From assembly GCF_056712565.1 (NCBI RefSeq), contig NZ_CM160072.1: a DNA stretch of 64,000 nt; one strand, given 5' to 3'. The position numbers are program-made. Positions 18,001-21,000 of the stretch are shown here, in pieces (the stretch's first letter is position 1; each line of letters opens with the position of its first letter).

Positions 18001-21000
18001 TTACAACCGACCCAGAACCAATAATACTCTTTGAGCCTAGCTTCAACTGGCCATTTACAACAGTACAGCTACCAACAAAAGTTTCTTCTCCAACAGAAAC
18101 ATCACCATTAAGTACAACATTAGTAGAGATATTGCTACAGCAGCCTATTTCATTACCATGTTCAATTAAACTCCTAGTATTTATTACAACGGCATCATGT
18201 ATTCTAGTATCACGGTTAAGTATACACATTTTACCAATAAAAATTCCATCACCCAGTATAATATTTGGTGATAGAATAGCAGTTTTATCTATAATGTTAA
18301 TTAAGCGTAGATTATGTTTTCTTATGATGTTTAAATAGTGCTTCCTAGTTGATGGTTTGCCTATCCCAATAAAATAATAATAATTATCCTTATTCTCGAT
18401 GTCTGCAATATCATTACCTAATATTGGATATGATTGATGATAACCACTTTTATATTTATCGATAAATCCTATTAACTCGTAATGTTTATGATTTAAGCTG
18501 TCAATTATAGATTTTGAAAAACCACCCGCACCAAATATTATTAACTTTTTACTCATGATATGTCTCAGTTAAATATTTCCAAGGCATAATATTGGAATGT
18601 AACCACTATAGGTCTTTTTTGTAATCAGCAATGGCTTCCGTAACATTTTTATAAAATTTACCTTGCCCCTCTTTGTTAAGATAAATAGCAACATCACAAT
18701 ACTCCTTTAAAGCTCGTTCACTATGTGACACCATTATTAAATGAGATTTTTCTCTTATTTTATCGAATATATCTGAACATTTCTTTTTAAACTTTGCGTC
18801 TCCAACAGCAGTGATTTCATCAATAAGATAATAGTCGAATTTAAAAGCCATACTTAATCCAAAAGCTAACCTTGACCTCATGCCAGAAGAATAAGTTTTA
18901 ATGGGCATATCGAAATATTTTCCGAGTTCGGAAAACTCTTCAACAAAATCAACCCTCTCATTTAACTCATCGCGTTTTGCATATAGTCGGGCAACAAATT
19001 TAACATTTTCACGACCGGTTAAACTTCCTTGAAATCCACCAGCCAATCCAACGGGCCATGAAATTTTATGTTCTGTAATAATGTTCCCACTATCAGGACG
19101 ATCTATACCACCAATTATCCGAAGTAAAGTTGATTTACCGGCTCCATTTTGACCAATCAGGGCAATGTTATAGCCTTTAGGAAAAATAATATTCAAATTT
19201 TTAAAAACATAATGCCGCCCAGTGGGCGTGCGATAAGACTTCGTCAAATTCTCAATCTTAATCATGATGTCAGCATTGCCTCTTCACGCGTTCGGTATAA
19301 TGCCAGGCCGATGAACAGGGTGACCAGAGTAAACATTGCAAGGTAGTTCAGACTCACGCCTTCACTGATATAGCCAGGCATAACTGCCTCGCGGCTTAAC
19401 TCCACAACATGCACTAATGGGTTCCAGAGTAGATATGACCAGTATTGTTTTGGAATCGAGTGTAGAGGGAACATGATGCAGGAGATGAAATACAGCGGCT
19501 TAAGCAGTATCGGCAGGACCTTTTGCATTTCAGGAAAGGTTTTACCAACGACCATAAATATTAAGCCGACGCCACATGAAAGAATGATTAACAAACTCCA
19601 GGTGAGCACAAGTTGTAAAAAGTTTGTAATTTCGAAATATTCGCCTGTCATCCAGACGATAAGCATGAGCAAAATATAAACAGCAACGTAAATCAGTGTC
19701 TCAAGCAGTGCACGTGCAATGATCGTATCGATGGGTTTTACTGGTCGATAATTAAACAGTCCCTGGTTCGCTTCAATAGCACCAATAGAACGTTTGCTAA
19801 TACTACTAAAGATAAAAAAGGGAATCAGGCCATTAAGTAAAAACACCGGGAACGAGATGTCTGGCATAGTGCGGTGCATAACGTAACCCAAAATTCCCAA
19901 CAGTATCAGCAAATGCGCGGAGGGTTCAAGAATCGCCCACAAATACCCCAGACGAAACTTACCAAAGCGTGTTCGTATTTCTCGTAGAAATAATGCCTCT
20001 ACGGTGACTTTCTGAACTTCAAATCCACTTCTTGCCATTTGATGATGTGATCCTAATCTCTTCAGGTACGCTACCGCCCTTGGCTTAACAGCTACCAATA
20101 CACTGGAGGTAATACTTGTTTGTAACTGGATAAAATTTACTCAGACGGTTTGACCTTTTTAATAGCCGCAAAAAAATTTCAGCAGAAATTATTTCCGCAG
20201 GGATAAATAGATCTATTTCCGTCTCGTTTCTTCTAATCCATTCTTCAGGCATGAATGTATTCGGTCTTCTGGTAATTTCAGAAAACTGGCCGTTTTAGAA
20301 TGCAGAGTTAATTTCTCAGGAAATTATTTTTTGTTATTACTGTTAACTACTTGATTATAATATCCCCTATGGATTTTATGCGTAACAACACTTGCAATCT
20401 GTTTCAAACCAGAACGCACGCGATTGATTACCAATAAATTATTCACCGAGAAACTATTTCCCTATTTAAAATTCACTCGTGTACTTCTTATTTATATCTA
20501 CAGCCCCCTCTTTACAGCCATATTTGTGATTTATATCACATTTAAATGGTGTTATTTAAGTTGCATCAATAATCCCGAAGGTAATTATTTTCGTCGATTA
20601 AAATATACATCTTGATTATTTTGTGTATTTATTTTAACCAGTGTTACAACCAACACCATCCCTCAGTAGATATACCTGAGCAGACATTTCTTAAAATCGA
20701 CGAATAGTTTCCCTGGAAATTATTATGCTTATTTGAAATTCCCTTTCTGATTATCTCCTGTAATTTTACTAATTTCCAGGCTACACAAAATACAGATCAC
20801 ATAAGAATTATCCTATATGTTTTGACCTATCAATTGTTACTCAATGATTTATTACAACTATTAATAATCATAATGTATCAAAACACTTAAGCATCTTTAC
20901 AGTCTTAGAAAGATGTCGATTAACGAAGGCTACATGGTGAAAAACAGGTTCCTTCAGTGTTACCGAATATTCCGTGGTGGTCTGGAGGGAGATAATTCTT

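Follow-up and report, generated by a model that had tools for sequence, protein, structure and literature searches.

Recurrent palindromes with conserved arms in the PR3 leader of the Escherichia group 2 capsule genes kpsMT

The PR3 leader and comparable systems

The region 3 promoter (PR3) of the Escherichia coli K5 and K1 capsule (kps) clusters and its long 5' untranslated region (UTR) are reportedly the subject of two original studies, Stevens 1997 and Xue 2009. Two other systems bear comparison: the proU downstream regulatory element (DRE), in which spaced H-NS nucleation sites in the transcribed region are needed for cold/osmotic silencing, and the ompA 5' UTR, in which a 5'-terminal stem-loop stabilises a long-leader mRNA. 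A distance of 741 bp separates PR3 from the kpsM start codon downstream; the promoter has a -10 element but lacks a -35 element, the long UTR modulates the extent of transcription getting to region 3, and an ops element directly upstream of kpsM loads RfaH (PMC8960920). Both H-NS and SlyA bind the PR3 region, with SlyA activating transcription; H-NS protects -135 to -21 and +141 to +219, the latter being indispensable for repression at 20 °C (PMC8960920). In enteroaggregative E. coli (EAEC) 042, CRP binds TGTGATTTATATCACA about 250 bp downstream of the promoter, as found by chromatin immunoprecipitation sequencing and electrophoretic mobility shift assay, and represses there; the -10 of a second promoter, P2, lies within that CRP site (PMC12360894, 2025). 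We analysed a 64,000-nucleotide stretch (the window) of contig NZ_CM160072.1 in RefSeq assembly GCF_056712565.1, where a first-pass annotation, made from the sequence alone, had flagged repeated motifs and an inverted pair at positions 20170-20800, upstream of kpsM.

Read on the minus strand, this interval belongs to PR3 together with the kpsMT 5' leader, in a group 2 capsule cluster of the K1 type from E. coli, as established by the kpsM translation, the yghD/gspM-kpsM context, a JUMPstart match of 58.5 bits, the 741-bp distance to the -10 and a CRP site identical in sequence to the published one. The annotation was therefore right to place its motifs in a non-coding regulatory region upstream of kpsM, a region that is the already characterised PR3 promoter/UTR. 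The leader spans 20039-20779 on the minus strand (741 nt in this short allele, from the published distance between PR3 and the kpsM start codon), so that +1 is computed at about 20779 (20038 + 741), a literature-derived start 7-8 nt downstream of the -10 hexamer; the numbering in the CRP paper, with the P2 -10 mutation (A of TATAAA) at +245, agrees with it (PMC12360894). On this scale the flagged interval comprises the core promoter and the 610 nt of transcribed leader nearest to it, and the published H-NS footprints, mapped from the PMC8960920 coordinates with +1 = 20779, fall at 20800-20914 (-135 to -21) and 20561-20639 (the DRE, +141 to +219).

The locus is thus the same element as PR3 and the 741-nt UTR of the K5/K1 kps cluster, sharing the yghD/gspM-kpsM position, the -10-only promoter and the ops/JUMPstart, and the published leader is likewise AT-rich, bound by H-NS and SlyA, and moderates read-through (PMC8960920). 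PR3, H-NS, SlyA, CRP, RfaH/ops and the large 5' UTR are all already known. As far as the searchable literature shows, that is, the published PR3 accounts other than Stevens 1997 and Xue 2009, in which we found no mention of periodic palindromes, a 5'-terminal stem-loop or a 117-bp long/short polymorphism, what appears to be new here is a periodic, Escherichia-specific and constrained palindrome array, a common and probable deletion of one of its units, and a 5'-terminal stem-loop.

A palindrome repeated along the leader

The flagged 9-mer, GAAATTATT, belongs as right arm to an AT-rich palindrome of 22 bp that reads AATAATTTC-N4-GAAATTATT on the kpsM-sense strand, with five copies in this leader and six in longer alleles at intervals of 116-136 bp. 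That the motif is half a palindrome, that the array is periodic and that the region is the known PR3 had all gone unseen in the first-pass annotation. At least four copies had been listed there: exact copies of GAAATTATT do occur on the plus strand at 20185, 20320 and 20716, whereas the one placed near 20583 is GTAATTATT (20581-20589), with one mismatch, and a fifth, degenerate copy at 20436-20459 had been missed. A repeat search extended the 9-mer to a 20-nt family at 20174, 20309, 20570 and 20705, each member of which is palindromic.

Read in the sense direction, palindrome m1 (20703-20724, +56 to +77) is AATAATTTC-CAGG-GAAACTATT, and its left arm serves at the same time as 3' arm in the 5'-terminal stem-loop described below. 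The one-mismatch copy, m2 (20568-20589, +191 to +212), is AATAATT-ACCTTCGG-GATTATT and sits inside the published H-NS DRE, while the degenerate m3 (20436-20459, about +321 to +344) is AAATAGTTT-CTCGGT-GAATAATTT, at a position that fits the 130-bp period. Palindrome m5 (20307-20328, +452 to +473), AATAATTTC-CTGA-GAAATTA, has perfect 7-bp arms and no mismatch to AATTTC-N4-GAAATT, and m6 (20172-20193, +587 to +608), AATAATTTC-TGCT-GAAATTTTT, forms part of an extended hairpin at 20168-20198. All copies lie inside the transcribed 741-nt leader (+56 to +608).

The centres of the five copies are spaced 135, 130, 131 and 135 bp apart, self-similarity of the leader peaks at offsets of 131-135, 261-266 and 395-396, and a periodicity band test scored above 98.6-98.9% of shuffles for two alleles and above 93.6% for another. 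Only the palindrome itself recurs, because the spacers between copies are unrelated to each other (they align mutually no better than shuffles, sum z = 0.8) and Tandem Repeats Finder reported no array at a score of at least 30. Tandem duplication of units of about 130 bp was rejected for the same lack of homology outside the palindrome. Counted as a bare 9-mer, GAAATTATT has 5 copies in the whole window against 1.07 expected (0 of 100 shuffles) and 3 copies in the AT-rich interval against 0.05 expected (0 of 2000 local dinucleotide shuffles). However, some 9-mer reaches at least three copies in 11% of local shuffles, so that the motif is above expectation but its count is not significant once the post hoc choice of motif is corrected for.

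Conservation was assessed in 52 aligned Escherichia alleles, 13 of them genome-derived and 39 distinct metagenome sequences retrieved through the PR3 core. Nucleotide diversity (pi; all 52 alleles unless stated) is 0.041 over the 98 palindrome arm columns, 0.243 over the 30 centre columns and 0.097 over the other 661 leader columns. Random blocks of equal shape reach the arm value in 0.02% of trials (p = 0.0002), and the 13-allele set gives 0.048, 0.274 and 0.116 for arms, centres and rest (p = 0.0006). This conservation, the extension of the 9-mer to a regularly spaced palindromic family and the self-similarity peaks are what lift the observation above chance. By comparison, pi is 0.130 at 4-fold degenerate sites of kpsM (39 alleles) and 0.040 at its codon positions 1+2. 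Arm diversity is 2.4-fold below the rest of the leader and 3-fold below the 4-fold sites, and the left arm of m3 is invariant throughout. The palindrome arms are under purifying selection as strong as that on non-synonymous kpsM positions, while the 4-bp centre is free. The centres, 4-8 nt long (for example 20313-20316, 20574-20581 and 20711-20714), are the most variable columns of the leader, at about twice the kpsM 4-fold diversity; this could reflect the neutral rate that really applies at this locus, or else unusually frequent mutation in the loops of hairpins or cruciforms.

The same leader offers an internal standard in the CRP operator TGTGATTTATATCACA at 20526-20541 (+239 to +254), a perfect TGTGA-N6-TCACA identical to the published EAEC 042 site and with the P2 -10 (TATAAA) inside it. 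Its half-sites have a pi of 0.004 and its N6 spacer one of 0.211, the same pattern of conserved half-sites and free spacer as in the palindromes, and it exemplifies a protein on transcribed leader DNA that lowers expression (PMC12360894). The CRP operator differs in its sequence (TGTGA-N6-TCACA as against TTTC-N4-GAAA), in being a single site rather than a periodic array, and in having a known binder.

The 52 alleles fall into two leader length classes, long and short. In long alleles there is an additional unit of about 117 bp, which opens with m4, the sixth palindrome (AATAATTTC-TTGC-GAAATTA), and stops at m5; in the window, the junction where this unit (m4 plus its spacer) is missing lies at 20326-20335, the alignment gap being flanked on both sides by the palindrome motif. 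Because the most divergent lineages (E. whittamii, Escherichia sp. E1V33 and the 79%-identical Nord8 type) are all long, the long form is probably ancestral, and the short form of the window probably arose when m4 and m5 recombined and the unit was deleted. Counts of 419 genomes with the m4 spacer and 1698 with the leader make about a quarter long and about 75% short, and the published 741-bp distance is that of the short form. The alleles themselves are recombinational mosaics.

Outside Escherichia, the palindrome is absent from 38 kpsM leaders of other Enterobacterales genera, which are 310-870 bp long and alignable to the Escherichia leaders only at JUMPstart. In Mixta and Pantoea, three kpsM leaders (L008, L009 and L011) that do not contain the Escherichia palindrome have a perfect hairpin of their own, TGCTGAA-N3-TTCAGCA, at about -140 from kpsM, approximately the position of m6.

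Proposed operator-like sites, RNA hairpins and other explanations

We tentatively favour, with somewhat less than even confidence, a DNA-level reading over an RNA-level one, in which the palindromes would be operator-like sites for a candidate dimeric, sequence-specific DNA-binding protein. This reading draws on the validated CRP operator, which shows the identical arm/centre pattern in the same leader. The palindromes have the generic features of dimeric helix-turn-helix operators (inverted half-sites, fixed 9-4-9 spacing, 5-6 copies, conserved arms and a free centre), and an arm sequence common to all copies combined with hypervariable loops points to DNA. Conserved arms with variable loops are what a dimeric helix-turn-helix protein classically leaves behind, whereas hairpins recognised by RNA-binding proteins usually show the reverse. 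Such a candidate protein would occupy evenly spaced places along the transcribed leader DNA, together with H-NS, SlyA and CRP, and would modulate the share of PR3 transcription reaching ops and kpsM.

Several points weigh against it. No E. coli regulator consensus among those tested fits the palindromes, and no regulator gene was noticed within the kps cluster, which was surveyed without gene-by-gene annotation, so that there is no obvious source of a dedicated binder. The palindrome at up to one mismatch has no other occurrence in the 64-kb window, and the periodicity statistic is modest (p 0.01-0.06). The transcription start on which the positions depend comes from secondary sources, the primary papers being Stevens 1997 and Xue 2009, and the palindromes might already have been described there. 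Three features hint instead at constraint on RNA. Among transition mismatches in the arms, sense-strand G.U occurs at 11 pair positions and A.C at 6 (11 and 4 in the genome-only set), a bias that is not significant (about 0.06 to 0.17); m3 has a paired G-C in place of the consensus A-U; and the whole leader folds better in the sense direction (-180.7 kcal/mol, z = -4.9) than in the antisense (-145.8 kcal/mol, z = -2.5). Moreover, since an array of DNA palindromes automatically yields RNA hairpins, the two levels are inseparable by sequence alone.

The search for a known binder for such operators gave leads of unequal quality. NagC and Mlc operators, which carry invariant TT/AA at +/-5,6 about a central base and cooperate by DNA looping (PMC4288165), resemble the palindromes in being AT-rich quasi-palindromes with a TT...AA core and in having multiple sites about 100-200 bp apart that act together (PMC4288165), and N-acetylglucosamine as a capsule precursor would provide a plausible metabolic link. 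Their geometry does not fit, however, because these sites are odd-centred (TT-N9-AA) while the kps palindromes are even-centred (TT-N8-AA), and this too counts against the operator interpretation. The E. coli IclR operator is TGGAAATNATTTCCA, and three-box sites are described for the IclR family (PMC8222616). Each kps module can be written as [G]GAAAT-A-ATTTC[C]-N4-GAAAT, three boxes of alternating direction, of which the first two match the IclR consensus at 11 of 14 positions in m6 and 12 of 14 in m5 of long alleles, and CCTGGAAATT includes the perfect half-site TGGAAAT. Matches to the IclR box with up to three mismatches number 2 in the L002 allele against 0.42 expected (9 of 200 shuffles), but in the window 6 against 4.6 expected (34 of 100 shuffles), no more than chance and a further point against. 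The best-conserved box pair, TTTC-N4-GAAA, fits neither described geometry of the family, and we know of no link between IclR and capsule, so an IclR-like half-site GGAAAT/ATTTCC is only a lead. Of the FNR, CRP, SlyA, Fur, Lrp, LysR-type, RcsB and Fis consensus sequences, compared informally by eye, none matches both half-site and spacing.

The alternative that the palindromes act in the transcript, as AU-rich hairpins AAUAAUUUC-loop-GAAAUUAUU recurring about every 130 nt, marginal at 37 °C and stable at 20 °C, is somewhat unlikely in our judgement but is the main rival. Such hairpins could tune pausing, processing or decay with temperature, or offer a site to an RNA-binding protein, and so account for part of the published UTR effect. 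Besides the hints of RNA constraint given above, it can call on the transcription of all copies from PR3, covariation in the 5' 190 nt of the leader, retention of the m2, m5 and m6 hairpins in the RNAalifold consensus, and a predicted stability that about doubles from 37 °C to 20 °C. Palindrome m6 forms a 13-bp hairpin followed by a U-rich stretch and is the sole stable palindrome hairpin (-9.7 kcal/mol, z = -3.2; m5 is at -3.2 kcal/mol, z = -2.4); it alone was flagged as terminator-like (7 pairs, 3 of them G-C, with the tail UGAAAUUUUU), the other copies not qualifying, and its U run varies among alleles (U7, U6, UUGUUU, UUGGUC). Against this reading, the local hairpins have marginal stability at 37 °C (-1.0 to -3.3 kcal/mol, most z-scores not significant), four of six being no stabler than shuffled sequence; none of 49 local palindrome pairs shows a compensatory change, nor does any local hairpin in the 52 alleles. 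Mismatches are conserved within the arms, A.C of m1 in 47 of the 52 alleles and A.A of m3 in all 52. A hairpin function needs no identical stem sequence in six copies, and a conserved stem with a hypervariable loop reverses the pattern generally known for hairpin-binding proteins. An RNA thermometer of the ROSE or fourU type was rejected: the AU-rich hairpins, thermolabile in prediction, lie about 135-685 nt upstream of the kpsM start with no overlap of the ribosome-binding site. Rho-dependent attenuation was likewise set aside, the sense RNA having more G than C and being a poor rut substrate.

A reading with no dedicated factor at all, in which AT-rich bent or high-affinity patches (phased T3 and A3 tracts) seed and phase filaments or bridges of H-NS, StpA or SlyA, amounts to an extended version of the published downstream regulatory element for cold repression, and we consider it unlikely. 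The region has a G+C content of 34-35%, the H-NS footprints flank the transcription start, and m2 is central in the downstream one; TCGAT(T/A)AAA stretches, which resemble the H-NS high-affinity motif, flank m1 and m2. The spacing of more than 100 bp is like that of the proU nucleation sites, and as in proU there are AT-rich sites in the transcribed region, m2 falling in the kps DRE. On the other hand, the kps sites are fixed-geometry palindromes in 5-6 copies over 550-670 bp, and one of them, m1, falls between the two published footprints, where the DNA is unprotected, so that H-NS is disfavoured as a direct reader of the motif. H-NS needs no palindrome with a fixed 4-bp centre, the footprinted copy m2 is the most divergent from the consensus, and arms conserved at the non-synonymous level are more constrained than a binder guided by composition would lead one to expect; the region covered by the reported footprints stops short of m3-m6. 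The fixed 9-4-9 geometry, conserved arms and free centre are why a sequence-specific dimeric binder, rather than H-NS, would be the better candidate. The earlier proposal of repeated sites for a nucleoid-associated or thermoregulatory factor therefore stands in so far as H-NS and SlyA do bind the region (PMC8960920), but only m2 is footprinted and the geometry is unlike that of H-NS. Least probable of all, and to our minds very unlikely, is that the repeats are functionless relics, left by a tandem duplication long ago or by the insertion of small palindromes into AT-rich DNA of horizontal origin, and kept alike by gene conversion. The non-significant count of the bare 9-mer after look-elsewhere correction, the confinement of the array to Escherichia, the loss of a whole unit in about 75% of genomes that keep the locus, and the mosaic alleles would all suit relics. 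They would not be expected to combine the low diversity of the arms, relative to both the leader and the kpsM 4-fold sites, with centres that vary more than any other columns; gene conversion would have made the centres uniform as well, and spacers without residual homology imply that the similarity of the arms is actively maintained.

A probable structured 5' end and the surroundings of the leader

The inverted pair in the first-pass annotation is a different element from the palindrome array. CCTGGAAATT does occur at 20712-20721 as described, while its reverse complement is at 20771-20780 and not at 20781, an offset of 10; the 10-mer pair counts 2 against 0.13 expected (1 of 100 shuffles). 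Together these arms (20770-20780 and 20712-20722) close a predicted 69-nt stem-loop at the 5' end of the kpsMT mRNA (20711-20780, minus strand; -18.3 kcal/mol, z = -4.0), in which 20771-20780 supplies the first ten transcript nucleotides and 20712-20721 is the left arm of m1. The stem-loop is kept in both the minimum free energy (MFE) and the centroid fold of the whole leader. Its 9-bp core is retained in 12 of 12 alleles of one alignment, with four one-sided G.U-compatible changes, and the Nord8 lineage has one A-U to G-C double change that breaks the competing local m1 hairpin; in the 52-allele set, three stem positions have breaks, in 6, 1 and 3 sequences. It is followed by domain II (20593-20701, minus strand, +79 to +187), also in the MFE fold, which has a closing helix GUCGAUU (20701-20695)/AAUCGAC (20599-20593), picked up as an inverted repeat, and three internal hairpins, with RNAalifold and pair counts indicating compensatory changes at alignment pairs 99/209, 102/206, 125/134, 151/159 and 175/193. 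Across the stem-loop and domain II, 98.5% of cells are paired, compared with 28-49% in slid controls, and compensatory changes affect 6 pairs and 38 cells; 6 of 500 shuffles reach that pair count and none of 500 the cell count or covariation score, values that carry the caveat that these very sequences, themselves related, were used to derive the structure.

A structured 5' third of the leader is thus reasonably supported by comparison of the alleles. The suggestion of a structured leader RNA appears to hold for this part, stem-loop and domain +79 to +187 alike, but the local palindrome hairpins show no compensatory change. By analogy with ompA, the probable role of the stem-loop is protection of the mRNA 5' end or guidance of the folding of the long leader. 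As with the ompA type, the kps stem starts 0-3 nt from the 5' end, a long leader follows, and substitutions are compatible with pairing; the kpsMT stem differs in that its 3' arm doubles as an m1 arm, which makes an alternative local pairing possible.

Upstream of the leader, the PR3 core promoter block TGATCTGTATTTTGTGTA (20782-20799, minus strand) includes the -10 TATTTT (20792-20787) and is unchanged in 13 of 13 genome-derived alleles; the 39 metagenome alleles were fetched with this 18-mer itself, so their identity there is no independent evidence. A Dam site, GATC, lies inside the invariant block directly upstream of the -10 (minus strand, 20795-20798, in TGATCTGTATTTT). Phenotypic heterogeneity has been reported for K1 capsule expression (PMC4468546). 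A perfect 11-nt inverted pair, TATTTTGTGTA/TACACAAAATA (20617-20627 and 20782-20792), joins the PR3 -10 region to a segment within the H-NS downstream footprint; its downstream arm differs among alleles and it is probably due to chance. Similarly, a perfect 14-bp palindrome, AAATAGATCTATTT, with a central GATC between m6 and m5 (20207-20220) is imperfect in several alleles (AAATAGATTAATTT, AAATAAACCAATTT) and probably not a conserved element.

At the other end of the leader, JUMPstart with its ops GGCGGTAGC, the RfaH loading site, lies at 20067-20105 on the minus strand (+675 to +713; Rfam RF01707, 58.5 bits against a gathering threshold of 35, E = 5.7e-12). Otherwise the Rfam scan gave only a sub-threshold ssnA match (17.3 bits, E = 0.87), judged to be chance. 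GGCGGTAG sits at -40 from kpsM here and 32-48 nt upstream of kpsM in 39 of the 45 leaders scanned, 32 of those being among the 38 non-Escherichia loci. One metagenome allele (L158, 5490-6365) has a normal long leader as far as its ops, GGCGGTAGCATACCT, followed by about 25 nt of unrelated sequence that replaces the kpsM ribosome-binding region, which suggests a recombination break-point directly after JUMPstart. In E. coli KE47 (NZ_CP141089.1, L004 1501-2202), the promoter and the first ~115 nt of the leader are joined to the last ~100 nt before kpsM, which is annotated as a frameshifted partial pseudogene, making this a decayed kps locus.

The kpsM coding sequence, for the ABC-2 permease of the capsule exporter, occupies 19262-20038 on the minus strand, with a clean translation of 258 amino acids (aa) and the A of its ATG at 20038. 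The next gene upstream on that strand is yghD/gspM (21096-21632), and in annotated genomes with matching loci, where kpsM is labelled 'ABC transporter permease', it likewise adjoins yghD/gspM. The 1.06-kb intergenic region between yghD and the kpsMT pair (ABC permease/ATPase) is found in 1698 of 5426 complete E. coli genomes, its best matches including the E. coli type strain and an O2:K1 avian pathogenic E. coli; to the left of kpsM, region 2 has a G+C content of 26-33%. The earlier statement that no open reading frame explains the region was borne out, since the only sense-strand frames of at least 40 aa (20085-20252, 55 aa; 20324-20446, 40 aa) cross indels that shift the frame among alleles and were rejected.

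Group 2 capsules, such as K1, K5 and K2, are central to the virulence of extra-intestinal E. coli, and their expression hinges on PR3 and its long leader, which according to published work moderates transcription and contributes to thermoregulation while few discrete elements in it have been named (one H-NS footprint, the CRP site and ops). It is possible, if on the doubtful side, that a candidate regulator on DNA, or a hairpin-binding or temperature-sensitive RNA mechanism, reads a previously unrecognised cis-regulatory array, in which case the common loss of the 117-bp unit would be a natural variant in the expression of a major virulence factor. Should none of this hold, what is left is the PR3 leader as already described, with motifs that arise incidentally from its AT-rich composition. 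A function of the elements in RNA would oblige the purely transcriptional model of thermoregulation (H-NS, SlyA) to take in a post-initiation layer, and a binder, if found, would be a new input to capsule control. Were the array reading true, it would explain how a 741-nt UTR moderates transcription of the capsule genes. The five or six palindromes, the 5' stem-loop with its covarying domain and the frequent natural one-unit deletion provide precise candidates for work on capsule regulation.

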